Positions 21,733-50,071 are shown, counted from the stretch's first letter. The stretch: 64,000 nt of DNA from Leptonemataceae bacterium (GCA_965227295.1 OZ245742.1:480001-544000); one strand, 5' to 3'. Notes: generated by a model from the sequence alone, not told the origin. A program made the numbers and translations.

Positions 21733-21883
21733 AGGCTAACCGTCCACACGCAGCCGCGGTGGAGAAGATGCGCGGAAAATCTACGTACTGATAGGCACTG
21801 CTCACTTAAAGTTATCCACAAGATCTTAATGCCCACATGTTAAGAAATTGTTGCGGATCCATCTTGCATGGCCTCCCTGAGGC

Positions 21884-32598: not shown

Positions 32599-35500
32599 AT
32601 GCGAATTCCGTCCAATTTCCGCCGCATCACCAGTGCCATCACCGCCGTCGCGCTGGCCCTGGCCACCGTCATCCCGCACCCGTCCCTGCTCGCGCAAACC
32701 CCGGTGCCATCCCTCACCCCGCAAGGATTCGACGAGGCCGAGTACGCGGCCCTCTATAATAGTGCGGCGGGCGCGGGCAGTGTCTCCGAATGGCAGGCGT
32801 TGATCGACCAGGGCCTGGCCACGTCGCCGCCCTGGGAGGCGACACTGGACACGGAAATCGCCGGCCACGTAGGCGCGGTGACGGACTCGGACGCGTACAA
32901 CAACACCGCCGCCTATCAGGACTATCTGGCCGCCCAGCTCGAATTGCAGAAGGGCGCGGACGTGGCGCAGTGGAACGCGGGCTTGAGCGCGCAGGAGGAG
33001 TACCAGCGACAGGTGTATCTCGCCGCGCTCATGAGCAACTACAGCGACGAGATGGAGCAGGAGGCGAACGCCGCGGGCTCGAACGCAAGCTGGCAGGATC
33101 AGTTCGATTACGATTACTACCAGGGCTTAAGAGAATTTGAAACGGCCTTAAGCGCCGTGGACCAGGAGTACGCAACGACGATCAGCGAGCTGGATCAGCA
33201 GGATGCAATCTTCCAACAACGCCTGGCGGAGATCCAGCAGTACGAAGACACCGTGCGTTCGAACATTACGGCGCAGGTGACGAACCTCACGAACTTTCTT
33301 TCGAGCAGCGGCATGTTCTACGACGGCGGCGGCAACCTGAACGCCGCCGGCCTGCAATTGCAGACGCTCCTCGACGACGTCAACGACGGCCTGAACAACG
33401 GCACGGCACTGTCGACGATCAGCGATCAGATTGCCACGTACATGGAAGCGCGGGAAACGGACGCGTTGCAGGAGCAGGCGGACTGGACCGCGGCAAGCAC
33501 GTGGAACGCGAACACTTCGAACACGATCGCCATCGGCAGCCTGAGCGTCTGGTTGGATAGCTATCCGGAAGTCGTCGGGATCATGAACTACGTTCTCGAC
33601 GGGGATGCATCCACGGCCATCGACCAGATTCGCGGGTACATGGGATACGACTCGGCCGTTGATATTACCATCACCGGCGCGGACGCGATCGGTTTTTCGT
33701 ACAGCTATCCTCCTACGGCCCAATGGGGCGGCGAGACGCTTTCGAGTCTGCCTGATAACCCGCATGATTACTACGGAACGACCATCAGCACGAAGTGGGC
33801 GGCGTTCACGTACATCGCATCCGGCTGCTTCGGGCCGAACGTCTGGAATCCGGGGCCCTGCGGTTATCCGGCGAGCCTGCCGGAACAATACACGACAATC
33901 ACTTACGATTTCACCGCCACCGACACCAACGCCGTCGCCAACGCCGCCACCTGGGGCGGTTACGCTGCGGCGCTGGGGCCGATGGCAAACACCTGGCGAA
34001 ACGACGTCATCCCCGCGATTCAGAACTGGGAATCCCAGACCGCCGCCCTCGAAGCGAACTACAGCGCCTGGCAGGCCGAGGCGTCGTCGTTGCGTTCCCA
34101 GGCGGAGTCGCAGTACGCGCAGAGCCGCACGGCGATCCTGGGCGAACGCTCGCAGTGGCTCGGTGAGGTTACACGCATTGCGAACGCCGGCGAAAGCCTC
34201 AGTCGCTCGGCACAAACTTCTACGGAAGAAGAGTTAGCACCGGCGCCGTTACCGGTCGTTCCCCGCGTTACGGCGCAGAGCATCTATAACCGCAATCGCG
34301 ATTCGGAGAACAGCCTCGCCGCGGCCCGCAGCCTGGGCCGGGACACGCTGAGTAATCTTACTTCACCGGATACGAGCGCCCTCGAAAACTTTCTCGAAAC
34401 CACGCAACGCAGCCTCACCGGCCTGCAAAACCTCGCATATACCGAGTCGATTCAGCTCCAGGCCGAAGAGGCGCGGCAACAGACCATCGACATGCTCGTG
34501 GGTATGGTGACGCAGGACAACGTCCAGGAAGAACGCCAGGAGATCGATTACAACCCGTACGAAGACGTGCCGGTATTGCTGCGTCCGGAGGGCTGGGAGA
34601 ACGTCAAAGCGACGCGCCTCGAAACGAACGAGGAGATGCAGGAACGTATCGAGAACCAGCGCGCGCGAAACTACACCGACGTCAAGGTCGGCAAAGACGG
34701 CACGATCATTGCCAGCCGCGCGATCAAGACGGGCGAGGCCGTGTGGAACGGCGGCGATCTTACGAACACGGACGGCTACAGCGCCGCCTACGAAACCCAG
34801 ACCGTCACGATTCGCCCGCCCCAGGCCATCAAACTCGCGAGCGGCGGTGATTTGTTCGCGAGCTGGGACTACGACGAGCTACAAGAATCACATGAAGAGA
34901 ACTTAAGCGACTTCTACGCCGGTCTGGATCGCAAGGTCCAGGCGGCCCAGGGTCAACTCGCAAACGCGAACGAACTGTTCACCGCCCGCGAAACGGCCTT
35001 CCAGCAAAACGCGGCAAGCCAGGCGCAGACCTGGTCCATGATCAAGTCCCTCGTGACTTCGATGATGGGCGGCATGGACCTCGGCTCCGCCCTTGTTGAT
35101 TACGCGAAGAATCAGATCATCGGCCAGGTGGCTTCGCAGATCGAAACGATGACCGGCATTCCCGCGGGTTTCATGTCGAGTATTCTCGGCGGCGCAAATA
35201 TTGAGCAGGCGATGCAATCTTACGCCTGGCAGGTCGTGGGCAGTCACATCGATGAAGTCACCGGCATCTCGGGCCTCGGCTCACAACTCACGGGCATGCT
35301 GCAAAAGCAGATGGCGAAGAAAGCCGCGCGCAACGGGCCGATGGGCAAACTCGCGAACAGCATGGCCGCGATGACGATGGGCGGCGGTTTCGGCGCGATG
35401 GCCGGCTTTATGATGGGCGGGCCGATGGGCATGCTTGCGGGTGCGGCGATGGGTGCGGCTACCGGCGGCGCGATGAACGAGGCCGGCGCGGCCGGATTCG

Positions 35501-38415
35501 CGGCACCGATGGCGGATGTGTTTTATGAAAACCCCATGTTGATGGATGCAACGGCTTACGCAACGGCCAGCGCAACCGGCAACCCGGGCGTCTGGTACGG
35601 CTACCAGGCGATGAAGGGAAGTTACATGGGCGGCACTGTGGGTGCGCTAACGAGCATGGCGGACTCCGCGTTGATGGCGACGCAGTTGGTTGGGGTCGAT
35701 GCGAGTATTTCGTATACGTTCGATGACGGCTTCGGTGGGAGTCTGGGGATTGGCGGAGAGTACGGTAGCATCGGTGTTAATTACAGCGAGAGGAACGGCG
35801 TGGGGGCGTACGGACGCCTCGGCCAGGGTGAGGGATTGAGCATTGGGTTCAGCGTGAGTGAGCACGGCGGGAATTCGATTAACGCCGGATACAGCAGTGG
35901 TGGTGTGAACCTCGGGGTGAGTTATAGTGATCAGACGGGCTTTGGTGCGAACGCGGGATTTGGTGGCGAAATTGCGGATGGTGTGAACGGCAACCTCGGG
36001 TTGAGCTGGAGTGAGACGGAAGGTGTTGGAGCGAATGCGGGAATAACTTACGGCAACGGCGATATCGACAGCATGCTCGGCGGCGGACTCAGTTATACGC
36101 AGAACAGCGGGCTGTCCGCGAGCTTAACTGTCGCCGGTGGTACGTTAGGGACGATTACGGCGGACGGGTTTCAATACAACGCCAACTTCGCAAAAGACGC
36201 GGCCGGGGCGGCGTTGAAGAAGAAGTACGTGGAGGATCGGAAGGCGGAGCGGGCGGAGGAGTTGGAGAAGACGCTTGAGGAGAACCGCAAGAACATGTCG
36301 CCCGAAGAGCGGGCGGCATTCGATAAGCTGAAATCTGTGGAAGATAAGGTCGCGTTCTTGAAGGAGAAGGCCGAGCAAGGCGGCGATGATGCGGTGGTGA
36401 ATGATGCGTATGGGGAGTCGTGGGATAGTCAGGACGGGCTGACAGGATTGCTGGGGAGCTTTGATCTCGGGCAGGATATGCTCAATTTCGCGAATGAAAT
36501 CACAGGTACAAACAGCGACAATACCGGATACATTGATGAGCGAGGAGACTTTCATGTGCGGACATGTTTTCCGGCATGGATGCCCGTCACTGTGGAAGGC
36601 GGCCATCTCGAAGAAATTCAGAACGTGAGAGCCGGCGACCGCGTCCTGACCTTCAATGAAAAAACCGGCGAGTTCGAGTACAAACCAGTCCGCACAGTGT
36701 GGGAGCGCCAGACACACGAGTTCCACGAACTAACATTCGAAGACGGCGTTTTTGTCGAGACGACCTGGTCTCACCCTTTTTATGTAAAAGATCGCGGCTG
36801 GGTGCCGGCTCATAAGCTTCAGCCTGGAGATCTTGTACATACGCGCGCGAGCCTGGCCGCCCAGCAAAGACAGGACAATCTCATCCATAATATTCAACTC
36901 GCAAGTCTTAGCGAAGATAATCTGCGTGAGAGCGGCCTGGACCCGCCGTTGCGCCTGTTAACAGTGAATGTCACGCTGCGCTCGGAAACGGTCTATAACC
37001 TGGACGTCGAAGATAACGATAACTTCTTCGTAAGCTCGGCCCGCATCCTCGTTCACAACCAGAACCACTACGATGATGCCGGCTACGGCGGCGCAACGTT
37101 CTCCGCGGACGGCACCAGCGGATATGGAAACGAGGAGCGCGTCGGCGATGACTCCGGACCTACGGAATACGAACAATTCATCCGCGCTACGAACCAGCCG
37201 ATCATCGAAATCTTCCCGAACGAAGATGAGAACACGAGCACTCCCGCCGCGGAGCCGGAAGATACCGGGTCAGCCACCGCCGGCACCGATGGCGTACCGG
37301 CCGAAACCACTGACGCATCCCGACAACCAGACAATCCGCGCCCTCAGGAGCCGCGCGAAAATGCAACACCGGAATCATCCGCTCCTCAACCCGAAAAGGT
37401 GACTCCAGGCACTACTCTCTGGGAAGATGTCACTGAGTTCTTTACCGCGCCGATTGTGGGTAGCTCATCCATCGCAGACCTGGCTCTGGATTCGGTAGAA
37501 TTTATTCCGGTCGTGGGAGACATTGTGGGTGCGGCTCGCTCCGGAATCGAACTGGCAACGGCAGTCTCAAATGGTGATTGGCCCTCCGCCGGTTGGGCGG
37601 CCGCAGGCGTCGGGCTGAGTATCGTAGGATTGATTCCAGGCATTGGCGATGCCGCGACAGCGATTAAGCATAGCATGAAGCATGGCGCCGATGTTCTGAA
37701 ACACGGCGATGATGTTCTTAAGCACGGCGATGATGTTCTTAAGCACGGAGACGATATCATTCGGCATGCGGACGACTTGCCTACACGCGCCGGCCCGGAT
37801 GTGGCTCCCGGCGCGAATCGCCCGGGCGGCGAAGCGGCCCAGGAACTTCAAGATCGCCAGCGACGCGAGCAGATCGAGCGACAGGAGCGGTATGGTTCCG
37901 ATGAGGGTTCCGGGCAGACACAGCCGCAACCGCAACAACAGCAGCAGGCACCGGATGGAAGGCCGGAGTTTGGCCAGCGTGCGAATCAAGGCGCAATAGG
38001 AACTCAGAATGAACAATTGGGCCGTGGTAATGCTGGCGATCCCACAGGGCCAGGGTACACGCAAGCCCAAAGCCCGGGAGAGCCGAGACAACAAATCCCT
38101 GCAACTCCGAGCGACAATGTAAATCGCGGCGAGATTCCTCCTGCACGTGGATCGCAAAGCCCGACGGGGCGCAGCGAGAATACGAAATCTCAAGATGCAA
38201 CGACCACCGGTAGTGATCGCACGCAAGAGATGCGGGCACAACAACAACATCAGAAACAGGAGCAAATGCGACGCGAGGCCCAAAAAAAAGCGATAGAGCA
38301 GGAGCAACGGAGGCGGCAACAAAATGAGCTAATACAACAGCAAGAGAAACTGCGGAAAGCGCGAGAGCGGCAACAGCAATGGGAGAGCCAACAAAGGCAA
38401 AATATGCAAGACTAA
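32599..38415 (+). CDS. Giant secreted polymorphic-toxin-like protein (Leptospira TIGR04388-like) with HINT domain, PT-TG-like region and Q/E/R-rich tip
   Basis: Sec signal ending SLLAQ; coiled coils; Gly-zipper; Gly-rich beta repeats; HINT from CFPA (36565) to LVHN (37059); FIPVVGDIVG...LIPGIGD. Confidence 0.85.
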   Translation: MRIPSNFRRITSAITAVALALATVIPHPSLLAQTPVPSLTPQGFDEAEYAALYNSAAGAGSVSEWQALIDQGLATSPPWEATLDTEIAGHVGAVTDSDAYNNTAAYQDYLAAQLELQKGADVAQWNAGLSAQEEYQRQVYLAALMSNYSDEMEQEANAAGSNASWQDQFDYDYYQGLREFETALSAVDQEYATTISELDQQDAIFQQRLAEIQQYEDTVRSNITAQVTNLTNFLSSSGMFYDGGGNLNAAGLQLQTLLDDVNDGLNNGTALSTISDQIATYMEARETDALQEQADWTAASTWNANTSNTIAIGSLSVWLDSYPEVVGIMNYVLDGDASTAIDQIRGYMGYDSAVDITITGADAIGFSYSYPPTAQWGGETLSSLPDNPHDYYGTTISTKWAAFTYIASGCFGPNVWNPGPCGYPASLPEQYTTITYDFTATDTNAVANAATWGGYAAALGPMANTWRNDVIPAIQNWESQTAALEANYSAWQAEASSLRSQAESQYAQSRTAILGERSQWLGEVTRIANAGESLSRSAQTSTEEELAPAPLPVVPRVTAQSIYNRNRDSENSLAAARSLGRDTLSNLTSPDTSALENFLETTQRSLTGLQNLAYTESIQLQAEEARQQTIDMLVGMVTQDNVQEERQEIDYNPYEDVPVLLRPEGWENVKATRLETNEEMQERIENQRARNYTDVKVGKDGTIIASRAIKTGEAVWNGGDLTNTDGYSAAYETQTVTIRPPQAIKLASGGDLFASWDYDELQESHEENLSDFYAGLDRKVQAAQGQLANANELFTARETAFQQNAASQAQTWSMIKSLVTSMMGGMDLGSALVDYAKNQIIGQVASQIETMTGIPAGFMSSILGGANIEQAMQSYAWQVVGSHIDEVTGISGLGSQLTGMLQKQMAKKAARNGPMGKLANSMAAMTMGGGFGAMAGFMMGGPMGMLAGAAMGAATGGAMNEAGAAGFAAPMADVFYENPMLMDATAYATASATGNPGVWYGYQAMKGSYMGGTVGALTSMADSALMATQLVGVDASISYTFDDGFGGSLGIGGEYGSIGVNYSERNGVGAYGRLGQGEGLSIGFSVSEHGGNSINAGYSSGGVNLGVSYSDQTGFGANAGFGGEIADGVNGNLGLSWSETEGVGANAGITYGNGDIDSMLGGGLSYTQNSGLSASLTVAGGTLGTITADGFQYNANFAKDAAGAALKKKYVEDRKAERAEELEKTLEENRKNMSPEERAAFDKLKSVEDKVAFLKEKAEQGGDDAVVNDAYGESWDSQDGLTGLLGSFDLGQDMLNFANEITGTNSDNTGYIDERGDFHVRTCFPAWMPVTVEGGHLEEIQNVRAGDRVLTFNEKTGEFEYKPVRTVWERQTHEFHELTFEDGVFVETTWSHPFYVKDRGWVPAHKLQPGDLVHTRASLAAQQRQDNLIHNIQLASLSEDNLRESGLDPPLRLLTVNVTLRSETVYNLDVEDNDNFFVSSARILVHNQNHYDDAGYGGATFSADGTSGYGNEERVGDDSGPTEYEQFIRATNQPIIEIFPNEDENTSTPAAEPEDTGSATAGTDGVPAETTDASRQPDNPRPQEPRENATPESSAPQPEKVTPGTTLWEDVTEFFTAPIVGSSSIADLALDSVEFIPVVGDIVGAARSGIELATAVSNGDWPSAGWAAAGVGLSIVGLIPGIGDAATAIKHSMKHGADVLKHGDDVLKHGDDVLKHGDDIIRHADDLPTRAGPDVAPGANRPGGEAAQELQDRQRREQIERQERYGSDEGSGQTQPQPQQQQQAPDGRPEFGQRANQGAIGTQNEQLGRGNAGDPTGPGYTQAQSPGEPRQQIPATPSDNVNRGEIPPARGSQSPTGRSENTKSQDATTTGSDRTQEMRAQQQHQKQEQMRREAQKKAIEQEQRRRQQNELIQQQEKLRKARERQQQWESQQRQNMQD
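37678..37779 (+). repeat. 21-bp coding tandem repeat (KHGDDVL x~5)
   Basis: KHGADVL-KHGDDVL-KHGDDVL-KHGDDII-RHADDL. Confidence 0.9.
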
Positions 38416-38445
38416 CTATGGTTTAATGTCCAACGTGACGCAAGT

Positions 38446-39465
38446 ATGGATCGCCAACACAGAATCTCAGAACTACGCGAGATTGTTCGCGCGAATCCAA
38501 ACGATGTAGAAAACTGGCTGGAGCTGGGTCTTGCACTAACGCAAGCCGGGCTTTATGACGAAGGAATCCTGGCGCTGACCAAGGCCTATGAACTTGCTCC
38601 GCATAATGCTGAGATCGGAAATTGGCTGGCATATTCTCTGAACGAAAGCGGTCAGTTCAAGGAGTCCTTATCCATCTCAACAGCTCTCGTATCTCAAACA
38701 CAGTCCGCAACTGCCCTTTACTATATGGGTTGGTCGTTACGAGAGCTGGGAGAATGGGAAGCAGCACTCAAGGCCTTTGAGAAAGGCATTCAGCAGGAAC
38801 CGGAGAGTCAGAACCTCTTCGGCGCTGCAACGGTATTTATACATCAGGGACGTCATGCAGAAGCCGCAGAGTACTTACGGAAGGCTCTGCAAGTAGATGG
38901 GGGGGAGAATCCAGAGATACTCTACTTGCTTGCCATGTCGGAAATTGAATTGGGTCAGCGCGAACAGGCCGTACAAAGCCTGGAACAATGTCTACAGGCC
39001 GCCCCAGACCACATAGCTGCAGCCAATGAATTGGGTCTTTTGTATACACAAGTCAATCGCATCCCGGATGCTTTGACACTCTTGAATGATACTCTGAAGC
39101 GCGATTCTGAGCACATTGTGACCCTCAACAATCTCGGCTATGCCTATTTCCTGGCGAGGTTATATAAGAAAAGTGAATTTTATCTGCGAAAGGCATTAGA
39201 TCAAGATCCGGATTACTCCAATGCCCTTTATGGACTCGGCAGTGTCTATGCAGAATCCGGGAACTACGAGGCTGCCGTCATAGAACTGGAGAAACTGGTC
39301 TCCGTGGCGCCGGACTTCATCCCCGGCTGGATCAGCTTGATTAACAGCTATGTGCAGAATAAGGATAGTAGGGAAGCCTCGGCAACCTTAAAGCGAGCAC
39401 TGCAGAGACACCCGGAATCCGAACAATTGAAAGGCCTGTCGCTGGAACCGGATTCCCAAGACTGA
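38446..39465 (+). CDS. TPR protein, type A (candidate immunity)
   Basis: About 9 TPR motifs; starts 30 bp after the toxin stop; lower GC. Confidence 0.88.
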   Translation: MDRQHRISELREIVRANPNDVENWLELGLALTQAGLYDEGILALTKAYELAPHNAEIGNWLAYSLNESGQFKESLSISTALVSQTQSATALYYMGWSLRELGEWEAALKAFEKGIQQEPESQNLFGAATVFIHQGRHAEAAEYLRKALQVDGGENPEILYLLAMSEIELGQREQAVQSLEQCLQAAPDHIAAANELGLLYTQVNRIPDALTLLNDTLKRDSEHIVTLNNLGYAYFLARLYKKSEFYLRKALDQDPDYSNALYGLGSVYAESGNYEAAVIELEKLVSVAPDFIPGWISLINSYVQNKDSREASATLKRALQRHPESEQLKGLSLEPDSQD

Positions 39466-39491
39466 ACCTTGAGTCCCCATAGTGAACCCCT

Positions 39492-40505
39492 ATGGATTTC
39501 GATAGGCGCATTTCTAAACTGAGAAGCCGGCTACAGGAATTTCCGGATGATCCGGAAAACTGGGTCGAGTTAGCGTTGGCTCTCGGAGAAAGTGGTGACC
39601 ACGCTAGCGCCGCCTTCGCGTTTACCAAGGCAAGCGAATTAGCCCCGGATTCCACGGTTCTTAGACTACGCCTGCTGACATCGCTGCGTAACGCTGAGCA
39701 ATATGAAGAAGCAGTGGCGTTGGCTGACAAAATTCTGGCAGAACACGAGTGCCCGGACGCCACCTATATAAAAGCGTGGAGCCTGAGAGAACTCGGGGAG
39801 CTGGAAAAAGCACTCGATCTATTTTTATCCGGCATTAATGATTATGGAGATGGACGCAACTTTACGGGGGCTGGAACAGCACACGCCCGAATGGGCAACT
39901 ATGAAGATGCCCTGCGTTGCTATGAGAAGGCAATAGAGGTTGAGCCTGCAAATCTCTCCGACTCTGAATTTTTATATACTGTAGCCATTGCCAAAATCGA
40001 AACAAACAACCCGACAGAAGCAATCCAATTGCTTTCACAAGCCCTTACACTTGATCCAGAGCACAGGGAGGCGGGAAATGAATTGGGCAAGCTCCTGGCA
40101 TATGAAGGGAAATACGATGCGGCCATTCAAACTTTTCTCAGGGTTCTTGATCATTATCCTTCTGATTCTGTCACCTTAAACAACATCGGTCATGCATACC
40201 TTTATGCGGGAATGCCGCAGAAGAGCCTAACGTACTTTGACGAAGCGATTGAAACGGCTCCGGACTATGTAAACTCCAGATTTGGAAGGGGTTCCGCCAG
40301 AATCTCGATCCACGATTTTGCCGGAGCTGTAGAAGACTTTAAGACGTGCATTGAACTTATGCCTGAGGAGGAATCCGGCTGGATAAACCTGGCCCGATGC
40401 CAACTTGAGCTAAGTGACACAGAAGCCGCCGAAGCAACAATCCAGAAGGGACTGGAGCTACACAATGATGCGCAAAAACTAAGGAGCCTTCTTAAGTATA
40501 TTTGA
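39492..40505 (+). CDS. TPR protein, type B
   Basis: TPR motifs; paralogue of 42032 (shared LNN.xHAYLYAGMP.KSL.YFD..IE.APDY.NSRFGRG). Confidence 0.88.
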   Translation: MDFDRRISKLRSRLQEFPDDPENWVELALALGESGDHASAAFAFTKASELAPDSTVLRLRLLTSLRNAEQYEEAVALADKILAEHECPDATYIKAWSLRELGELEKALDLFLSGINDYGDGRNFTGAGTAHARMGNYEDALRCYEKAIEVEPANLSDSEFLYTVAIAKIETNNPTEAIQLLSQALTLDPEHREAGNELGKLLAYEGKYDAAIQTFLRVLDHYPSDSVTLNNIGHAYLYAGMPQKSLTYFDEAIETAPDYVNSRFGRGSARISIHDFAGAVEDFKTCIELMPEEESGWINLARCQLELSDTEAAEATIQKGLELHNDAQKLRSLLKYI

Positions 40506-40571
40506 GAAGGCCATCCTGTTCACAGAATTTGCACGTCACCAATCCCCATCTTCCGCGCCCCTACCCGTCAC

Positions 40572-41594: not shown

Positions 41595-41636
41595 CGACCC
41601 GGTAACTTCCATGCGAAGACCCAGGGTTCCAATGAA

Positions 41637-42002
41637 ATGAATACTGACTTCAACTCTCTGCCATGGCATGATGCCACGCTGCTATCCATAAGCATAGATC
41701 GCTCTGATCCGGGCCACATAGACACCGTCTCGCTCGCCGTTCATTGGCCGAATGGCAGCAAGAACAACGTAGTCTTTCAGGATTGCTACATGCTGAATGC
41801 CCGAATGAATTTCGGGGTCGTCGCGGCGGAGAGCATTCTGAAAGGCGAGCATCTGGACGACGACCCTGAAATCACTGCGATCAAGAATAGATGGGAGCCG
41901 CTGGGAGTTCCTTTGCATAATTTGAGTTGCTATAGAATCGTCACAAATTCTACCAACAGCCAGATCCATATCTATTCCCTATCATATGCGCTGACGGCGT
42001 AA
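41637..42002 (+). CDS. Small hypothetical protein, orphan immunity-like
   Basis: 121 aa, low GC, LPWHDATLLSISIDR N-terminus; inserted in the TPR array. Confidence 0.65.
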   Translation: MNTDFNSLPWHDATLLSISIDRSDPGHIDTVSLAVHWPNGSKNNVVFQDCYMLNARMNFGVVAAESILKGEHLDDDPEITAIKNRWEPLGVPLHNLSCYRIVTNSTNSQIHIYSLSYALTA

Positions 42003-42031
42003 ATCTCTATTAGAACCCGCACATTTCGGCC

Positions 42032-43039
42032 ATGGACCGGCAAATTCAAGAACTACGAGACGCAGTTCGTCAGGATCCGAACGATCCGGAGAACTGGTTG
42101 GAACTCGGCATTGCACTTCGAGAGTCTGGAGACGCAGAGGAAGCGATACTGGCGCTATCGAAGGCGCACGAACTCGCGCCTGAACATGACTTAACGGCAC
42201 TCAATCTCGCGTTAGCCCTGGGAGACGTCGATCGGCATCAGGAAGCCATTCGTGTCGCGGATGGTATTCTCGGTCGCAAAGATTCTGCCGATGCCCGTTA
42301 TCTGAAGGCCTGGTCATTGAATCAACTCGGGCAGTCCCAGGAGGCCCTGGAGATATTCCTGCGGGGTATCCAGAGCGAAGGGGATGCACGCAGCCACTCG
42401 GGCGCAGCCTCGGCCTATGCCCGACTCGGACGGTATCGAGAATCACTCAATGCCTATGAGCATGCCCTCGAACTGGACCCGGATTTCAACGAAGACGCTC
42501 AGTTTCTGTACGGCCTGGCATTGGCTCAATCTGCGCTGGGACAACGATCTGTCGCGATAGAAACCCTCACCCGCGCCTATGCGATGGCACCCCAAAACCG
42601 GAGCATCGGCAATGAATTAGGCAAGCTTCTCGGGTTGAGCGGCCAGTATACGAAAGCAATCGAGGTCCTGACTGAGGTATCGGAAAATTTTCCTGACGAT
42701 TACTTCCCCCTGAACAATCTCGCGCATGCATATCTCTACGCAGGTATGCCGCGCAAGAGCCTCCCGTACTTCGACCGCACGATCGAACTCGCCCCCGACT
42801 ATCCGAACTCCCGATTCGGCCGCGGTGATGCCCTGATGCAAGTCAAAGACTACGGCAGCGCAATTGATGATTTTCTCCAGGCCACACGAATCATGCCGGA
42901 AGTCGTCTACGGCTGGAAAAGCCTTGTGCAATGCTATCTTGAGCTGGGAAAAGTCAATGAGGCAAAGTCCGCGCTCGGTGAAGCACTACAACTTCATCCG
43001 GATGCCCGGGACCTGCTGGACATGCAACAGATCCTGTAG
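42032..43039 (+). CDS. TPR protein, type B
   Basis: TPR motifs; paralogue of 39492. Confidence 0.88.
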   Translation: MDRQIQELRDAVRQDPNDPENWLELGIALRESGDAEEAILALSKAHELAPEHDLTALNLALALGDVDRHQEAIRVADGILGRKDSADARYLKAWSLNQLGQSQEALEIFLRGIQSEGDARSHSGAASAYARLGRYRESLNAYEHALELDPDFNEDAQFLYGLALAQSALGQRSVAIETLTRAYAMAPQNRSIGNELGKLLGLSGQYTKAIEVLTEVSENFPDDYFPLNNLAHAYLYAGMPRKSLPYFDRTIELAPDYPNSRFGRGDALMQVKDYGSAIDDFLQATRIMPEVVYGWKSLVQCYLELGKVNEAKSALGEALQLHPDARDLLDMQQIL

Positions 43040-43159
43040 CACTGAGACAGTTCGTTTCATCGGAGATCCTCGAATGGAAGCCGGGTGTTGGCTGGTACCG
43101 CGAAGAGAAAGGCCGTATCATCTTGCAGTTGGTCAAGGGCGAGAAGCAGCTCGTCGACG

Positions 43160-43580
43160 TCCACCAATCCGGGGAGCCCACCCAAGAACTTCCCCTACCT
43201 GGGCCCAGATCCTTAATTTTTCGCGAGCATTGTCTTGCAAAAATTCATTCCCCAATCCATTCTGTGCTTTCCGCGCTCAACAAGCGCACCGGAATCTCGG
43301 TTCGTAACCGAACTCCGGCCATCCGTTCTTTAACAGAACGCAACGATTCTCGAACGGGTCCGTTGCGTAAAAGGCAAGCCCGCCTGGGCCGATACAAGCA
43401 ATTCCGCACACGTGTGCGGAATTCAAGGTCGCGCGCATCGCCACTGCTAACCTGTGAATAACAAGCGTTAGGGACACGCAGGGTGGCGAAGCCAGTCTCG
43501 CGCAGCGAGACCGAAGCGAAGCGGAGCCCGGAGTGGCCCGACGGCCCGCCGCCTCCGCGGCGCGGCGGGCCGGAACGCCC
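43160..43580 (+). repeat. ~420-bp structured non-coding element, copy 1
   Basis: Direct repeat of 49555-49974; multiple hairpins including the palindrome aattccgcacacgtgtgcggaatt; REP-like 3' end. Confidence 0.92.
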
Positions 43581-43608
43581 AATCAAACATCGTTACTGCT
43601 TCACCTCG

Positions 43609-46600
43609 TTCAGCTCCAGGCCGAAGAAGCCCGGCAACAGACCATCGACATGCTCGTGGGTATGGTGACGCAGGACAACGTCCAGGAAGAACGCCAGGAG
43701 ATCGATTACAACCCGTACGAGGACGTGCCGGTGTTGCTGCGTCCGGAGTGCTGGGAGAACGTCAAAGCGACGCGCCTCGAAACGAACGAGGAGATGCAGG
43801 AACGCATCGAGAACCAGCGCGCGCGAAACTACACCGACGTCAAAATCGGCAAGGACGGCACGATCATTGCCAGCCGCGCGATCAAGACCGGCGAGGCCGT
43901 GTGGAACGGCGGTGATCTTACGAACTCGGACGGCTACAGCGCCGCCTACGAAACCCAGACCGTCACGATTCGCCCGCCCCAGGCCATCAAACTCGCGAGC
44001 GGCGGTGATTTGTTCGCGAGCTGGGACTACGACGAGCTACAAGAATCACATGAAGAGAACTTAAGCGACTTCTACGCCGGTCTGGATCGCAAGGTCCAGG
44101 CGGCCCAGGGTCAACTCGCAAACGCGAACGAACTGTTCACCGCCCGCGAAACGGCCTTCCAGCAAAACGCGGCGAGCCAGGCGCAGACGTGGTCCATGAT
44201 CAAGTCGCTTGTGACTTCGATGATGGGCGGCATGGATCTCGGCTCCGCCCTCGTGGATTACGCGAAGAATCAGATCATCGGCCAGGTGGCTTCGCAGATC
44301 GAAACGATGACCGGCATTCCCGCGGGTTTCATGTCGAGTATTCTCGGCGGCGCAAATATTGAGCAGGCGATGCAATCTTACGCCTGGCAGGTCGTGGGCA
44401 GTCACATCGATGAAGTCACCGGCATCTCGGGCCTCGGCTCACAACTTACGGGCATGTTGCAAAAGCAGATGGCAAAGAAGGCCGCGCGCAACGGACCCAT
44501 GGGCAAACTCGCAAACAGTATGGCCGCGATGACGATGGGCGGCGGTTTCGGCGCGATGGCCGGCTTTATGATGGGCGGGCCGATGGGCATGCTTGCGGGT
44601 GCGGCGATGGGTGCGGCTACCGGCGGCGCGATGAACGAGGCCGGCGCGGCCGGTTTCGCGGCACCGATGGCGGATGTGTTTTATGAAAACCCGATGCTGA
44701 TGGATGCGACGGCCTACGCAACGGCCAGCGCAACCGGTAACCCTGGCGTCTGGTACGGCTACCAGGCGATGAAGGGAAGTTACATGGGCGGCACCGTTGG
44801 TGCGCTAACGAGCATGGCGGACTCGGCGCTGATGGCGACGCAGTTGGTGGGCGTGGATGCGAGTATTTCGTATACGTTCGATGACGGCTTCGGTGGAAGC
44901 CTGGGTTTCGGCGGGGAATACGGCAGCGTTGGTGTGAGTTACAGTGAGCGGGACGGCATGGGGGCGTACGGGCGTCTGGGGTCCGGCGACGGCTTGAGCA
45001 TTGGGTTTAATGTGAGTGAGCACGGCGGGAATTCGATTAACGCCGGATACAGCAGCGGCGGTGTGAACCTCGGGGTGAGTTATAGTGATCAGACCGGCTT
45101 TGGTGCGAATGCTGGGTTTGGTGGTGAAATTGCGGATGGCTTAAACGGCAATCTCGGGTTGAGCTGGAGTGAGACGGAAGGTGTTGGAGCGAATGCGGGA
45201 TTAACTTACGGTAACAGTGACTTAGGGAATGCCATGGGCGCGGGCCTGAGTTATACGCAGAACAGCGGACTCAGCGCGAACGTGAGTCTGGCCGGCGCCA
45301 CACTGGCCTCGATCGCCCAGGGCGGAAATTTGCAGTTTAACAGCAATTTCGCGAGCGATGCCGGGCGCGGGGTGTTGAAAGAAGAGTACGTTAAGCAACG
45401 GAAAGAAGAACGCCTCGATGGTCTGGAGGAAGCGCTGGATGACGCCGGTGAGCTGACGGAAGAAGAGAAGCAGTTTTTGAAAGAGAATCCTGGTAAACGA
45501 CAGGCGTTTTTGGAGAAGAAGGCGGCGGAGATTAAGGATCGCGTTGAGAAGCTTGGTGATAAGTCCTCGGAAGCGGATGATTACGGCAGCTCCTGGGATA
45601 ATCAAGGCGGCCTCACAGGGCTCCTCAGTTCGTTCGACCTTGGCAAAGATATTCTCAATTTCGCGAATGAGATTACGGGCACGAATAGCGATAATACCGG
45701 TTTCGTTGACTCCGAAGGTAAGTTCCACGTTCGGACTTGTTTTGTCGCCGGGACCCTGGTTCGTGTACGCAAAGATGCTCCTGGCGCTTTTGAAGAAGGC
45801 GGAGAATGGTTTAAGAAAATTGAGGATGTGGGTGTCGGCGATCATGTCCTGAGCTGGGACGAAAAATCCGGTGCCGTTAGCTTCCAGCCCGTGACGGAGC
45901 TGTTCCGACATGATGTGGAATTGATCTTCGAGATCGCGTACGTAGACGGCACGATAATTGAGACGACGTGGAACCACCCGTTCTTTGTGCCGGATGTCGG
46001 TTGGGTGGAAGCACGCCACCTTCGCGGCGGGGATCGCTCTTTGTCTGCGGCCGGGGAGATGCTGGTGATTGCGAGCGTGCGCGAAATGCGGCGTGAGGCG
46101 CGGGTATTTAACTTTGAGGTGAAGCGGAATCATACTTATTTTGTAGGGCCAGCGGGCGTGCTGGTGCATAACTATGATTTGCGGACCGGAACCGTGGATG
46201 AGGAACGTGACCTCAAAGAGGTCCTTGCCAAAGTTAATGAAGAATTGGGCCTTGATTATACTTTAGAGGAACTGGCCGATTTGAATGGTATTGAGCCGCA
46301 AGGTCATTGCCTGACATATGCCAGTGTCACATGCGATTATCCTATAGTTGAGGGACAACAGATCCTGACTGAGGAGCAATACAAGGACTTATCAGAAGAT
46401 GAGCGCACGAGCTTCTTTGATAACCCTAAGAATCCTAAGGAAACTGGAGTCTACCAGGTCACCCTAAGTGCAGGCGCGATGTTTTTTTCAGGGCATTACT
46501 GGGACATCGGGTTTGTCGATGAAACGACACATATTGGACGATTCACACAATCGCGGGGGCTACCGATCCAATCATATACTCGCACTATTGGCGAGGGCGG

Positions 46601-46952
46601 AGATATTACGGCGGGTATGACCATTCAAATGGTGGAAAACACAACAATTGAGGATTTTGTTTTTGGGAACGAACTATTCATGACTTCAGAAGTCGATGGC
46701 GGCCTTCCGTTCTGGAATCCAGGATTGATTATGCGTGCGAATAATAGCTACGCGGGTTGGCTCGCGAATTTCGGCCTGACCCCAGGCCTCGGAGTAGCGG
46801 TATCAAGTAACCAGACACCGGACCTGGCTGGAAATACAACTGCGCCCCTTGGAACAGGATGGTGGCCGGGTGGCCCCGCGACAATTTCAACGGAGCATTG
46901 TATCCTGAGTACGTCTCAAAAAACGGGACCAATAAGCGTGGATTGCCTTTGA
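43609..46952 (+). pseudogene. Orphan (5'-truncated) toxin cassette: duplicated mid-region, different HINT, LysM-like domain, new C-terminal domain
   Basis: 43609-~45270 is nearly identical to 34451-~36112; no signal peptide; HINT CFVAG (45738) to LVHN (46172); frame intact to the stop. Confidence 0.85.
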
Positions 46953-46965
46953 TTCGGTTGCATGA

Positions 46966-47322
46966 ATGATGAACCTGGGGACAAGACGAATTCTATGCAT
47001 TACGGGTTTTGGATTGAGCCTGTTTCTAGCCAGCCAGTGGGCTTCTCCGCAGCAGATTGAGACCAATGCATTACTTGTCGTGCCAGGTGGCTATTGTATC
47101 GTCGGAGCATACGAATACAATGGGATACTAGAGAAAGAACAGGCTTTCTCTTACTGTGCTTCAGGCGTGCTGCAAGGTGGCGATGGGCACGGGATTCGAG
47201 AGTATCATAAGATTGCGGAAATCTGGGTTCCTTATCCAAAGGTTGTCGAAATCCGTGATTTCCCGGAGTGCTTACATGTACTAGCCAACACCCGATCTGA
47301 CACTCCTGCCTGTCAGATATGA
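46966..47322 (+). CDS. Candidate immunity protein of the orphan cassette, 3' end interrupted by IS481
   Basis: Starts 13 bp after the cassette stop; N-terminal hydrophobic helix; removing the IS rejoins the frame to 48444-48492. Confidence 0.7.
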   Translation: MMNLGTRRILCITGFGLSLFLASQWASPQQIETNALLVVPGGYCIVGAYEYNGILEKEQAFSYCASGVLQGGDGHGIREYHKIAEIWVPYPKVVEIRDFPECLHVLANTRSDTPACQI

Positions 47323-48431
47323 TCAGGTCGATACCTGATGCTGTTTATGCAGCATCTTTTCACGCGCCACGGCGATGGATTCAGCGAACGTTTGCGCCGG
47401 CGTCTTGCCGAAGCAGTACTTGCCGCTGTGCGTCCGTTCCTGGTTATACTCGAGCATCCATTCATCCAGATCGGCTTGCAGCTCCTCGATGCTTGAGTAA
47501 AGTTTCTTGCGAAACGCGACGGCGTAGAATTCTTCCTGAATCGTCTTGTGAAAGCGTTCGCAGACGCCGTTCGTTTGCGGATGCCGCGCTTTGGTTTTGG
47601 TGTGATCGATGTCCTCCATCGCGAGGTACAACTCGTACTCGTGATTCTCCGGCTTGCCGCAGTACTCCGTGCCGCGATCGGTGAGCACGCGCAGCAGCGG
47701 GATGTTGTAGTCCGCGTAGAACGGCAACACACGATCGTTCAGCAAGTCGGCCGCCGTCAGTGCGTTCTTGCGATCGTAAAGTTTTGCAAAGCCGACCTTA
47801 GCGTACGTGTCGATGAAGGTCTGCTGGTAGATCCGCCCCACGCCCTTGATATTGCCCACGTAATACGTGTCCTGCGAGCCCAGATAGCCGGGGTGGTGCG
47901 ATTCGACCTCGCCGTGCGCTTCTTTGTCCTGGCGGCCTTTCTCAAGCGCCGCGACCTGTGCCTCGGTGAGAATGATCCCCTCTTGCGCGACGCGGGCTTC
48001 CAGGGCCTTCAGACGCTTCTTGAACGTCTCCATGTCGTGCCGCAACCAGACCTGACGCACGCCGCCCGGTGAGATCGAAACGCCGCGCTTGCGCAGCTCA
48101 TTCGACACGCGCAATTGACCGTGCGCCGGCTTCTCGAACGTGAACTCGATCACCGCGTCTTCCACATCCGCCGGAATCCGGTTCTTCTTGTTCGGCTTGC
48201 GCCGCGTGAGATCCTTCAGGGCCTCTTCGCCTCCGGTCTCGTACAACCGCTGATACCGGTAGAACGTATCGCGTGATACGCCCATCACCCGGCAAGCCTC
48301 TGCAACGTTATTCAGAGTACGGGCCAGCCTCAAGATGCCCACCCGGTGCTTTACGATTTTTTGTTCTGCTGTCATCTCTTTCCTCCGATACAAATTATAT
48401 CGGAGTGTCAGATGGAATCTTGACTATTTCA
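47277..48431 (-). mobile_element. IS481 family insertion sequence
   Basis: Imperfect 30-bp terminal IRs TGTACTAGCCAACACCCGATCTGACACTCC / TGAAATAGTCAAGATTCCATCTGACACTCC; gcttaca repeated at 47270-47276 and 48437-48443. Confidence 0.9.
47323..48375 (-). CDS. IS481 family DDE transposase
   Basis: NVAEACRVMGVSRDTFYRY HTH, HPGYLGSQDTYYVG, LTDRGTEYCG, PQTNGVCERFHKT. Confidence 0.96.
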   Translation of the reverse strand: MTAEQKIVKHRVGILRLARTLNNVAEACRVMGVSRDTFYRYQRLYETGGEEALKDLTRRKPNKKNRIPADVEDAVIEFTFEKPAHGQLRVSNELRKRGVSISPGGVRQVWLRHDMETFKKRLKALEARVAQEGIILTEAQVAALEKGRQDKEAHGEVESHHPGYLGSQDTYYVGNIKGVGRIYQQTFIDTYAKVGFAKLYDRKNALTAADLLNDRVLPFYADYNIPLLRVLTDRGTEYCGKPENHEYELYLAMEDIDHTKTKARHPQTNGVCERFHKTIQEEFYAVAFRKKLYSSIEELQADLDEWMLEYNQERTHSGKYCFGKTPAQTFAESIAVAREKMLHKQHQVST

Positions 48432-48707
48432 AGTGAGCTTACAAAGCGTCTTGCTCAAGCACGCTTTACCGGTTGGCGCCTTATTGGAATAGCAGATCTG
48501 ACGGCGTATCCAGTTTCATTACACATATCCAGTATAGCTTTAGCTACTCTTGAAAAAGAAGGAACGACACTGACATTGTTGTTTGAAATTTCTCATAAAA
48601 GGGCTCTCCGAATTCGAGCGTTTGCAGCTGATTTTAGCAATCAAACGCATTTTGTAGCATCGGAGGGGCTCTTCTACCCATGAGACGGCCAGAGATCTCG
48701 TGCAGTT

Positions 48708-48760
48708 TTACGCCACTTTCCTTAATTTTTTCCCGGCCATTTTCTTGCAGAAATTCATTC
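48708..48760 (+). repeat. Partial third copy of the 5' (promoter-like) part of the 420-bp element
   Basis: ttacgccactttccttaatttttt...cattttcttgcagaaattcattc matches ~49594-49646 and ~43211-43250. Confidence 0.7.
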
Positions 48761-48942
48761 TAAAGTGCGACTAGTATATTTCATCTCTGAACAAATGGAG
48801 AAAGGTGTACTTATTGAAAAAACACAGATACTTACTTTGCATGGCGACAGGCTCCAGAGGCTGGAATCATATCCGGGAAATTTTGGAGGGGCCAGTGCTT
48901 ATTTCATGATCCCACTCGTTCTCTTGGGTCAGAGCGAGAAGG

Positions 48943-49392
48943 GTGCTAAGGAACCATAACGTGACGCTCAAAGCATCCCGATTTTGCTTCTTTATTGGTT
49001 TGGGTCTTGTTTTTACGGGCATAGTATATTTCCTCCAAGGCTTGCGGACGGCAGAAGTGCAAAGTCCCGAAAGCCTTCTGTTGCAGCCCGGAATTTACTG
49101 CGTTTTCCAGTCTGGCAAACTGCCTTCGCAGGGCTCTCAATTTTGTATGAAAGGTTACTGGAACAAGAGCTATGGAACTCTCTACTACCATCATACACTG
49201 CTTGTCATTGTGCCGCAGGTGTGGCCCGGGAGGCAAAGTCGGATCGGAAGGCAGATTAAGCACGAGCCTCTTTATGTCAGTGCGTCTATGTATCATTCTG
49301 GGTTCGGTCTGTCGATTCTCGTTCTGGGGCTTTTCTTGCTGAGGCGAGGGTATGAATTTTTTAAGTGGCTCCTCATTCGGCTACTTAGCTGA
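48943..49392 (+). CDS. Small membrane protein, probable paralogue of the 46966 gene (orphan immunity-like)
   Basis: LLLQPGIYCV...FCMKG versus LLVVPGGYCI...YCASG; low GC; start may be 48961. Confidence 0.6.
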   Translation: MLRNHNVTLKASRFCFFIGLGLVFTGIVYFLQGLRTAEVQSPESLLLQPGIYCVFQSGKLPSQGSQFCMKGYWNKSYGTLYYHHTLLVIVPQVWPGRQSRIGRQIKHEPLYVSASMYHSGFGLSILVLGLFLLRRGYEFFKWLLIRLLS

Positions 49393-49554
49393 GGATAACG
49401 TCCCGAATCTTTCGCGAAAAGGTGGGTTCTCCTCACCTGACCTCCGGCGATCATTTGTTCCTTCAGCACCTCCCGCAACAGGTCGATGTTGAGATACTTG
49501 CGTGAACTCCAGTTCGTCGCCGCCACATGCCGCGCCGCGACCAACGCCAGGCCA
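49393..49554 (-). mobile_element. IS256 family remnant (transposase C-terminus and right end)
   Basis: DGLALVAARHVAATNWSSRKYLNIDLL resembles IS256-family transposase C-termini; IR-like end ggataacgtcccgaatctttcgcgaa. Confidence 0.65.
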
Positions 49555-49974
49555 TCCACCAATCCGGGGAGTCCGCCCAAGGACTTCCCCCACTTACGCC
49601 ACTTTCCTGACATTTTTCGCAAGCATTGTCTTGCAAAAATTCATTCCCCAATCCATTCTATGTCTTCGCGCTCAACAAGCGCGCCGGATTCTCGGTTCGT
49701 AACCAAACTCCGGCCATCCGTTCTTTAACAGAACGCAACGAATCCCGAACGGGTCCGTTGCGTAAAAACAAGCCGCCCTCGCCCGGCGTTAGCAATTCCG
49801 CACACGTGTGCGGAATTCAAGGTCGCGCGCATCACCACTGCTAACCTGTGAATAACAAGCGTTAGGGACACGCAGGGTGGCGAAGCCAGTCTCGCGCAGC
49901 GAGACCGAAGCGAAGCGGAGCCCGGAGTGGCCCGACGGCCCGCCGCCTCCGCGGCGCGGCGGGCCGGAACGCCC
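49555..49974 (+). repeat. ~420-bp structured non-coding element, copy 2
   Basis: Direct repeat of 43160-43580; 3' third essentially identical. Confidence 0.92.
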
Positions 49975-49977
49975 AGA

Positions 49978-50071
49978 GAAGTCACCGGCATCTCCGGCCT
50001 CGGCTCGCAACTCACGGGCATGTTGCAGAAGCAGATGGCAAAGAAAGCCGCGCGCAACGGGCCGATGGGCA
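49978..50071 (+). pseudogene. 94-bp internal fragment of the toxin gene
   Basis: EVTGISGLGSQLTGMLQKQMAKKAARNGPMG; matches 35254-35347. Confidence 0.9.

Follow-up and report, generated by a model that had tools for sequence, protein, structure and literature searches.

A TIGR04388-family locus with a HINT domain, alternative C-terminal tips and a predicted internal beta-barrel: a candidate polymorphic toxin system in a Leptonemataceae bacterium

Polymorphic toxins shape which bacteria can be neighbours, and mechanistic work on them has been nearly all proteobacterial (contact-dependent growth inhibition (CDI), Rhs with the type VI secretion system (T6SS), and MafB) and Gram-positive (LXG with the type VII secretion system (T7SS)). 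Here we describe a locus at positions 32599-50071 of a window of 64,000 nucleotides, the whole stretch of DNA that was analysed, which corresponds to genome positions 480001-544000 of the single-contig genome of a Leptonemataceae bacterium (GCA_965227295.1; 5.94 Mb, 59.8% G+C). It contains a long gene, gene A, with a predicted Sec signal, a trunk that includes a Gly-rich beta region, a HINT domain and a variable C-terminal region (tip 1), and further downstream a truncated orphan cassette, open reading frame (ORF) B, in which a copy of the same trunk and a HINT domain lead into an unrelated tip (tip 2). As a whole, we read it as a polymorphic toxin locus of the spirochaete TIGR04388 family, with a probability of roughly 0.7. 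It offers three leads: a barrel predicted within the toxin candidate itself, two payloads for which no relatives are known, and cassettes delimited by a repeat.

A Sec-dependent route with HINT processing is listed as a general class of polymorphic toxin (PMC3482391, Table 1), so this kind of system is already known. The available portion of that source mentions neither Leptospira nor Spirochaeta, and Treponema only for immunity genes. Within the family itself, LA_3725 of Leptospira interrogans is put forward as a possible polymorphic toxin in the part of the source at hand (PMC4751964), which describes it as very large, with a signal or transmembrane segment at its N-terminus and PT-HINT close to its C-terminus. 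The literature found on LA_3725 gives, in its accessible parts, no function, structure or export route, and our literature search found no paper naming TIGR04388. LA_3725 and the other TIGR04388 proteins belong to the same family as gene A, which in this genome is expanded to 13 genes plus orphans. The TIGR04388 family includes the largest protein of many spirochaetes, among them relatives in the same order.

Among characterised systems, MafB/MafA of Neisseria is the closest. According to the accessible parts of the sources (PMC7738311; PMC3482391), it combines a Sec signal and a conserved trunk with a Hint domain in some cases, a variable C-terminal toxin, immunity genes and alternative 3' cassettes, and uses no type Vb, type VI or type VII machine; the present locus has the same layout, with candidates in the places of toxin and immunity genes. 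Unlike MafB, gene A has no DUF1020 (Pfam), its trunk is TIGR04388, that trunk is about four times longer, and a barrel is predicted inside it; the conserved neighbours of the paralogues include nothing like MafA (no search aimed at MafA was made), and, unlike in MafB/MafA, the cassettes are delimited by a repeat element.

CdiA/CdiB resembles the locus in its large exported protein and 5'-truncated orphan modules, and its variable C-terminal toxin and the immunity gene behind it have candidate counterparts here. According to the portion of the source at hand (PMC13625785), a fragment from the C-terminal part of CdiA assembles into a receptor-containing membrane and then autoproteolytically frees the toxin, an order matched in gene A by that of beta region, autoprotease and tip. 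Unlike CdiA, gene A has no two-partner secretion domain and no haemagglutinin repeats (Pfam), its boundary is a HINT domain rather than VENN, and the breakpoint lies about 320 residues before the tip. In Rhs/YD toxins, a conserved core is followed by a self-cleaving element and the tip, and displaced orphan tips lie downstream with their immunity genes, with insertion sequences (IS) nearby. The core, the self-cleaving element, the downstream orphan tips and the nearby IS all have counterparts here (partly after the accessible portion of PMC3482391, Table 1). Unlike Rhs, A and B have no RHS repeats (Pfam), TssC is missing from the genome, and a HINT domain would do the cutting in place of the Rhs aspartyl protease. 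Among autotransporters, those of type Ve (intimin/invasin) carry their passenger C-terminal to the barrel. Both type Va and type Ve depend on Sec and carry a barrel of the 12-strand class within the exported chain, as is predicted for gene A, and the Ve order is the predicted gene A order. The structural matches of the beta region include BrkA, NalP, AIDA-I and EspP, at Z 8.2-10.1 on a scale of fold match that does not separate barrel classes, and intimin (4e1s) at Foldseek rank 27 (E 0.023). Unlike autotransporters, gene A has no sequence match to a barrel family, its predicted barrel lies in mid-protein with about 1000 residues before it, and its payload would be a toxin released by HINT. 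The HINT domain itself has the Cys1 and terminal His-Asn of the bacterial intein-like (BIL) type A domain of C. thermocellum (2lwy), placed here as a pre-toxin module.

The features of gene A and ORF B, in window coordinates, are the following.

32599-38415, plus strand: gene A, a 1938-aa open frame (TIGR04388 291.1 bits, PT-HINT 53.5 bits); polymorphic toxin candidate
32599-32694, plus strand: predicted Sec signal peptide, residues 1-32, with cleavage proposed by heuristics between LLA and QTPVP
32704-34509, plus strand: mainly helical N-terminal region, whose residues 36-637 match TIGR04388 model positions 16-665; in the full-length gene only
34447-36110, plus strand: trunk segment duplicated in the orphan, 94% identical in DNA to 43606-45268 over 1668 nt
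35296-35598, plus strand: Ala/Gly/Met-rich hydrophobic segment ('Met/Gly zipper'), about residues 900-1000; by composition, with low model confidence
35695-36189, plus strand: Gly-rich amphipathic beta region, residues 1033-1197; predicted 12-14-strand membrane-type barrel
36190-36552, plus strand: charged helical linker, start of the variable cassette; helices modelled at residues 614-676 of B; A and B 50-57% identical
36553-37059, plus strand: PT-HINT, a bacterial intein-like autoprotease, residues 1319-1487 (PF07591 53.5 bits, Intein_splicing 45.6 bits)
37060-38412, plus strand: tip 1, 451 aa, with a T/E/P-rich linker, a G/A-rich part and a 210-aa Q/R/E-rich tail
43533-46952, plus strand: ORF B, the orphan cassette, a 1139-aa open frame (TIGR04388 100.3 bits, PT-HINT 74.3 bits)
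46173-46949, plus strand: tip 2, 259 aa, a domain without credible homologue

The locus runs from gene A through an array of tetratricopeptide repeat (TPR) genes with a 121-codon ORF, ORF B, a 118-codon ORF, an IS481 element and a non-coding stretch to a short trunk stub. Both long frames are open and both exceed the cut-offs for TIGR04388 (45 bits; 'Lepto_longest', an NCBIfam subfamily; E 1.7e-86 for gene A) and for PT-HINT (PF07591; 27.7 bits). Their HINT domains carry all the motifs: in gene A these are Cys1 (RTCF), TxxH (TWSH) and the terminal HN, TW(S/N)HPF is common to A and B, and a consensus of 32 homologues keeps RTCF, TTWxHPF and LVHN. AlphaFold2 modelled the HINT domain of ORF B with a predicted local distance difference test (pLDDT) of 95-98, and its best structural match is 2lwy (TMt 0.93, E 4.6e-13, root-mean-square deviation 1.1, 33% identity). 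Such a domain would be expected to release the C-terminal tip.

At the N-terminus of gene A, a Kyte-Doolittle scan and inspection gave an n-region, a hydrophobic stretch at residues 7-32 and a junction between A and Q. The same pattern of a basic n-region, an h-region, and A, S or T at -1 followed by Q-PVPVP was seen by inspection in 13/13 paralogues; by inspection, then, the N-terminus fits a cleavable Sec signal. The motif of A, S or T and then Q-PVPVP-x-L (window 32680-32720) is strictly kept behind the hydrophobic core in all 13, with AQVPVP in a metagenomic relative, and besides marking a signal-peptidase site it may have a further role, for instance in sorting or docking. The N-terminal region that follows matched no Pfam family, and an Atlas search gave no usable match; a search with the N-terminal 634 aa found no relative in a genome-contig collection that may itself not include this genome. 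Apart from the HINT-type domains, no Pfam family was found in the trunk. Its long helices appear in the structure model, and residues 900-1030 are 23% A, 18% G and 15% M, in a segment whose sequence is not conserved in the consensus of the paralogues and is poorly modelled.

The tips vary in the manner of a polymorphic toxin family. TIGR04388 has 24 matches over the cut-off in this genome, corresponding to 13 genes with the N-terminal region, and matches occur in 24/31 genomes, this one included. Of the HINT-bearing frames there are 14, whose post-HINT tails fall into 12 unrelated groups, so that a conserved trunk is combined with hypervariable C-terminal domains. When 18 tails of this genome were compared with Pfam, DUF6973 was found in two; a ParB-like DGHHR motif occurs in two of the 18 (E 0.002-0.011, below cut-off), HExxH was seen by inspection in two further tails, and the remainder had no match. 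Toxin-type or related domains (Tox-REase-7, CdiA_C, Phage_lysozyme and DUF6883) were found on four of ten scanned tails of relatives from the same genus or family. The expectation of toxicity comes from the family, and not from the two tips in the window. The metagenomic TIGR04388-like protein P0004 has the same signal-peptide junction, no HINT domain, and a ParB-like tip that is the tip of an orphan in this genome, which indicates that tips move between trunks. Finally, a same-strand ORF starts between -49 and +31 nt from the stop codon in 12/18 genes or cassettes.

Much of a preliminary description of this DNA is borne out by these results: its full-length 1938-aa gene and orphan cassette with a different post-HINT region, its TIGR04388-like and PT-HINT assignments, its cleavable Sec signal (as a prediction), its coiled coils (as long helices in the model), and its Met/Gly zipper and Gly-rich beta repeats (by composition, the beta part being modelled as 12-13 strands), and its parallel with CDI, Rhs and MafB loci, for which the orphan cassette sharing the trunk speaks. 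The C-termini, which it proposed to compare across relatives, were found hypervariable among paralogues. PT-TG, which it had also named, did not hold up, as the post-HINT region has no such Pfam match.

Several side observations concern the family elsewhere in the genome. A paralogue outside the window, at 5087454-5093723, resembles tip 1 in its ending, where a Gly-rich beta part is followed by a helical tail that is long and rich in R, E and Q, and this second case indicates that highly charged helical tails recur as 'tips' in the TIGR04388 family. Three giant proteins of 4255-4422 aa (750677-763945, 2349489-2362256 and 5013499-5026602) share the Gly-rich beta region with gene A, and one of them also matches it through part of the HINT domain; their genes carry downstream fragments of their own behind the same junction elements as are described below. 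A pre-toxin motif shared by tip 1 and the tail of the paralogue at 21783 was considered and dropped, since BLAST at E 1e-3 gave no link.

ORF B is a 5'-truncated copy of the family gene, lacking the signal peptide and the N-terminal region, and would therefore not yield a secreted product. A repeat element supplies the first 25 codons of its frame; trunk homology begins at 43606, and the beta region (44853-45347), HINT domain (45738-46172) and tip 2 (46173-46949) follow. In protein alignment, residues 618-1487 of A correspond to residues 26-880 of B with 75% identity, and the alignment stops exactly at the HINT terminus '...LVHN', beyond which the regions of 451 aa and 259 aa are unrelated. 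The identity is unevenly distributed along gene A:

residues 618-1000: amino acids 96-100%, third codon positions 90-95%
residues 1000-1170: amino acids 87-92%, third codon positions 72%
residues 1170-1487: amino acids 40-57%, third codon positions 35-37%

The sharp divergence near residue 1170, some 320 residues upstream of the tip, indicates that the exchangeable unit begins inside the last beta strands; it takes in linker, HINT domain and tip as well as the gene behind them. The 1.67 kb at 94% identity is ample substrate for homologous recombination, by which, given this layout, tips could be exchanged. Stand-alone 3' cassettes that share the trunk are present: ORF B and a stub at 49978-50071 lie in the window, and nine truncated trunk fragments occur in four loci of the genome. 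The locus thus offers a clean natural arrangement in which to study how spare toxin tips are stored and delimited.

Gene A might instead encode a structural or adhesin protein of the surface or periplasm whose C-terminus serves antigenic or binding variation, with ORF B and the stub as decaying duplicates. Such a role would suit a tip 1 that has no enzymatic domain and is largely of low complexity, a tip 2 without homologues, TPR genes that are not a known immunity family, and the signs of decay in places given by the IS481 insertion and the stub. We consider it very unlikely, because sister-gene tips from the same genus or family bear antibacterial toxin domains (Tox-REase-7, CdiA_C, lysozyme), an intact HINT domain lies directly before each tip, and small downstream ORFs are coupled to the gene or cassette in 12 of 18 loci; moreover ORF B, unlike a decaying copy, keeps a frame of 1139 codons and a trunk that is 96-100% identical.

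The beta region bears on how the product of gene A would cross the outer membrane. Residues 1030-1200 of gene A are 25% G, and nowhere else in the trunk is conservation across 31 homologues as high. The model of the whole of ORF B, made with 32 homologues, contains 12-13 consecutive beta strands at pLDDT 75-89. An AlphaFold2 model of residues 395-720 of B, made with 31 homologues (mean pLDDT 73.6), consists of a 32-residue helix, 13 strands (pLDDT 71-91) joined by turns of 2-6 residues, and further helices. In each strand, hydrophobic or aromatic side chains alternate with G, S or N, and aromatics stand at the strand ends. When this model was compared with 48,161 chains by VIA-align, 57 chains reached Z >= 8, and among the top 50 that were listed (Z 8.2-11.7, 133-213 residues aligned) all 50 were outer-membrane or mitochondrial barrels, including PelB (11.7), FhaC (10.9), BamA (10.6), TamA (10.3), BrkA (10.1), CdiB (9.7), NalP (8.7) and EspP (8.2). 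The rows listed by Foldseek were likewise nearly all membrane barrels (VDAC, Tom40, LptD, porins, the intimin beta domain), each with E of at least 1.7e-3. It is probable, judging from these models, that the Gly-rich beta region is a membrane beta-barrel.

Separate delivery machines were looked for in the whole genome, which is 93.55% complete. TssC (PF05943) and WXG100 (PF06013) gave no match genome-wide, with positive controls, and TpsB-type POTRA_2 gave none either, with positive controls in five genomes; ShlB was not found, in a search whose control was silent. No gene is conserved beside the 18 paralogous loci, up- or downstream, except for the small downstream ORFs. The absence of CdiB, T6SS and T7SS genes noted for the window in the preliminary description therefore extends to the genome for POTRA_2, TssC and WXG100. 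Its broader statement that there is no recognisable delivery system stands for separate machines and falls short in one respect, since the barrel predicted inside the trunk is a candidate export device.

In the mechanism that we propose, the Sec signal would take the gene A product across the inner membrane and then be cleaved off, leaving a trunk that runs from a helical N-terminal half through the Ala/Gly/Met segment to the beta region of 12-14 strands, and the barrel would perform the outer-membrane step. This might occur in either of two membranes. The barrel may sit in the outer membrane of the producer, with linker, HINT domain and tip threaded outward as in inverse autotransporters, or it may insert into the outer membrane of the target, with autoproteolytic release of the tip to follow, as has been proposed for the C-terminal half of CdiA. 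The HINT domain, placed behind the charged linker, would cut off the tip as the variable payload, and recombination over the 1.67-kb trunk stretch would put tip 2 on the expressed gene. An autotransporter-like topology, with the barrel in the membrane of its own cell, is a tentative suggestion and somewhat unlikely. The fuller proposal, in which a single Sec-exported polypeptide with an internal barrel achieves partner-free toxin delivery and a dedicated junction element organises the spare tips, is rather doubtful; if true, it would represent a new branch of type V-like secretion for bacterial conflict, the spirochaetes' own. If the beta region is a real barrel, it would explain how such toxins cross the spirochaete outer membrane and would make up a compact single-gene delivery module.

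Several points weigh against this account, and they concern the barrel, the exchange of tips, the tips themselves and their partner genes. Toxicity, cleavage, export and recombination are all steps that we infer. For the beta region, Foldseek gave no match at E <= 0.001, and no outer-membrane family was assigned by sequence, Porin_4 being matched by 2/31 members (best E 4.8e-4) and PorP_SprF by 1/31; a profile search of PDB sequences with the beta region matched helical proteins only. The barrel model was built on a shallow alignment of 31 sequences, the DSSP strand count is 13, whereas bacterial barrels do not have odd numbers of strands, and VIA-align itself states that Z 7-8 is common for unmatched models. 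The 30 relatives contain no close orthologue of gene A (best non-self match 33% identical) in which strain-level turnover of tips could be followed. By Pfam, neither tip in the window bears a known toxin domain, and tip 1 has no obvious globular domain, consisting of two hydrophobic helices and about 210 aa of Q/R/E-rich low complexity, so that it may lack enzyme activity or even toxicity altogether. As for the partner genes, TPR proteins are to our knowledge unusual as immunity proteins, and the native 3' end of the 118-aa ORF has been lost to the IS, the IS-free frame being 119 codons.

The toxin family might be the same and the outer-membrane step nonetheless be carried out by a separate partner that we did not recognise, such as a MafA-like lipoprotein, a type II secretin or vesicles, the beta region then being a soluble or fibrous module, a spacer or receptor-binding part, rather than a barrel. 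The missing sequence family, the Foldseek values, the odd strand count and the shallow alignment all favour such a partner. So does the precedent of MafB, the closest Sec-dependent toxin, which needs MafA, a partner not predictable as a barrel in the part of the source available (PMC7738311). This explanation is unlikely, however, in that no neighbouring gene other than the small downstream ORFs is conserved over the 18 paralogous loci, the 12-13 strands are all strictly amphipathic with aromatic ends, the top 50 structural matches are without exception barrels, and the beta region is the part of the trunk that the 31 homologues conserve best. The internal barrel remains our preferred reading of the outer-membrane step.

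The genes behind each tip are the following.

38446-43039, plus strand: TPR array of TPR-family genes A1 (38446-39465), B1 (39492-40505), A2 (40572-41594) and B2 (42032-43039)
41637-42002, plus strand: 121-aa ORF inside the TPR array, with unnamed homologues in Proteobacteria that are 60-66% identical
46966-47322, plus strand: 118-aa ORF, 14 nt after ORF B, with an N-terminal hydrophobic segment at residues 9-27; its last 15 or so codons are IS-derived

As the preliminary description had it, the downstream TPR and small genes are of lower G+C (0.48-0.56) than the trunk (0.59-0.65). A difference is also seen in the G+C content of third codon positions (GC3):

tip 1, 0.53; TPR genes, 0.48-0.59
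tip 2, 0.47; 118-aa ORF, 0.47
trunk, 0.75-0.80; citrate synthase, a housekeeping gene, 0.82

The low GC3 common to each tip and its neighbours, unlike that of native genes, suggests that they were acquired together, and on this compositional basis each tip and its neighbouring genes were probably co-acquired. The first downstream ORF follows at a short distance in both cases, the first TPR gene at +31 nt behind gene A and the 118-aa ORF at +14 behind ORF B. No known immunity family was found among the downstream genes with Pfam or NCBIfam.

The G/A-rich part of tip 1 contains four GDDVLKH-like repeats and two hydrophobic helices (1625-1646 and 1664-1689) in which small residues abound. Searched with residues 1483-1938, its only Pfam match at E <= 0.1 is a weak one to DUF4112 (E 0.0038). 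It has no homologue in the 30 relatives, and residues 1560-1730, when compared with proteins of 1065-3392 aa, returned the query alone. The TPR genes behind it form two pairs, 62% identical between A1 and A2 and 45% between B1 and B2, with 32-36% across pairs. Their products have no signal peptide and are cytoplasmic, and the family is confined to this locus within the genome and occurs in 0/30 relatives. Their NCBIfam scores of 56-77 bits, short of the cut-off of 104.8, give a sub-threshold resemblance to chaperones of the SycD/LcrH type, which serve hydrophobic translocators. The homologues of the 121-aa ORF come from a Sneathiella metagenome-assembled genome and a methanotrophic symbiont of Bathymodiolus, a pattern that fits a horizontally mobile small gene, for example an orphan immunity gene. 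The four TPR genes, with the 121-aa ORF, are the best candidate partners of tip 1, as immunity proteins or chaperones. A predicted complex of the first TPR protein with tip 1 (residues 1488-1938) scored 0.01, which speaks neither for nor against binding.

Tip 2 has no Pfam match. Against 1.84 billion representatives it gave only two weak matches (E 3.4e-7 and 6.5e-5), to unrelated repeat proteins; its best score in the Atlas search was 0.81, a recognition below the usual level; and it was modelled, without an alignment, at pLDDT < 50. A word-based homologue search with ORF B gave only five matches. The 118-aa ORF behind it belongs to no Pfam or NCBIfam family and is the best candidate partner of tip 2, as an exported immunity protein; its N-terminal hydrophobic segment suggests that, if it is an immunity protein, it acts outside the cytoplasm. 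Further downstream, a 149-aa ORF (48943-49392), situated between the IS and the second junction element, has two hydrophobic segments and faintly resembles the 118-aa ORF (BLAST E 0.14); it could be the partner gene of a lost third cassette.

These details bear on whether tip 1 is an active toxin. Within the same toxin family, tip 1 could be degenerate or non-enzymatic, for instance a membrane-inserting helical hairpin, with the TPR array encoding unrelated cargo or chaperones and not immunity proteins, while only tip 2 would be a conventional toxin, paired with an exported immunity protein. Its two hydrophobic helices rich in small residues and its want of a globular domain would agree with this, as would the sub-threshold likeness of the TPR proteins to SycD/LcrH chaperones and their lack of a signal peptide, and so would a 118-aa ORF with a signal-type segment only 14 nt behind tip 2. 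On the other side, the TPR array and tip 1 share their low GC3 and are both unique to the locus, as expected of a co-acquired pair, and the long R/E/Q-rich tail recurs in the paralogue at 5087454. This is a real if minority possibility; on the reading that we prefer, tip 1, like tip 2, would be a payload with its own partner genes.

The cassettes are set apart by non-coding elements, and the remaining features of the locus are listed here.

43160-43592, plus strand: junction element copy 1, a non-coding unit followed by a 130-nt repeat (43457-43586), ending 14-20 nt before the trunk homology
47277-48431, minus strand: intact IS481-family element with a transposase of 356 aa at 47323-48393 (NF033577, 284.6 bits)
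49555-49980, plus strand: junction element copy 2, 91.7% identical to 43160-43581, with the repeat at 49851-49980
49978-50071, plus strand: trunk stub of 94 nt, 94.7% identical to 35254-35347, starting within 5 nt of the end of the repeat

The repeat is a GC-rich, dispersed element of about 130 nt with internal hairpins, of which iterated nhmmer searches found 200 copies in the genome. In nine of the 200, a 5'-truncated trunk fragment in the same orientation follows 1-28 nt downstream, and these fragments are 75-100% identical to the nearest full-length toxin gene. All nine cassette-linked copies are within the 12 best-scoring ones, and they are spread over four loci. The point at which the trunk is joined varies (residues 618 and 886 of gene A, 1235 and 1322 of the gene at 2291012, 1222 of the gene at 21783, and 3265 of the 4255-aa protein) while the end of the repeat is constant, ...GGCCGGAACGCCCA. 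Cassette boundaries thus coincide with the end of the repeat element. The stub, which joins at a different point from ORF B, is the remnant of a third cassette.

Most cassette-linked repeats have upstream of them a conserved, structured non-coding unit of about 160-190 nt, which ends in a perfect 20-nt palindrome, TTCCGCACACGTGTGCGGAA (7-6-7; at 43402-43421 in copy 1). The eight genomic copies of the palindrome are confined to toxin loci. R1, a covariance model built on the unit, found nine full copies, all between the cassettes of large toxin loci of two protein families: two in the window (43265-43427 at 111.7 bits and 49661-49821 at 114.9 bits) and the others at 768049, 2285812, 2362823, 2367482, 2377242, 2381147 and 5008088. 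Compensatory changes were seen in 9/49 predicted pairs, essentially from two sequence groups. The unit was found in 0/30 relatives. The 130-nt repeat matches no Rfam family and has a folding z-score of -1.88, and no Y1 (RAYT-type) transposase was found in the genome. A promoter scan of 42900-43700 found none, the one candidate, TTGCAA-N17-CATTCT, agreeing at only 8/12 positions. Candidate roles for the junction element are a recombination site, the end of a mobile element, a terminator and a regulatory RNA. By analogy with the logic of integron attC, it could be a site of cassette capture or recombination. The 130-nt repeat is often paired head-to-head or tail-to-tail, like REP/BIME elements (repetitive extragenic palindromes and bacterial interspersed mosaic elements).

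What the preliminary description took for IS debris is an intact, multicopy IS481 element together with the cassette stub. The transposase exceeds the NF033577 cut-off of 224 bits, and the genome has five further copies that are 94-99.9% identical, with target duplications of 6-7 bp; the near-identity of these copies and their target duplications make it probable that the element is active. The copy in the window interrupts the 118-aa ORF at its 3' end and is flanked by a target duplication of 7 bp. Another IS481 copy adjoins the toxin locus at 21783.

The genome encodes four FlaA-family proteins. FlaA is the sheath protein of the periplasmic flagellum and typical of spirochaetes. Contigs from public runs X1 and X2, of one study, are identical to the locus in its unique parts and end where the repeats lie, and from X3, which has the same species label and comes from another study, only three short low-complexity pieces could be placed on the locus. 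One X2 contig that joins 43287 to 49708 was not counted as an excision of the cassette, given that it has 33 letters on one side and 24 foreign ones in between. The upstream neighbours of gene A encode a GT87 glycosyltransferase and a DUF3137 protein. Three GT87 paralogues lie on both sides of the toxin locus, at 31181-32458, 52218-53516 and 54058-55338, and the 17.5-kb toxin locus may have been inserted into a glycosyltransferase cluster.

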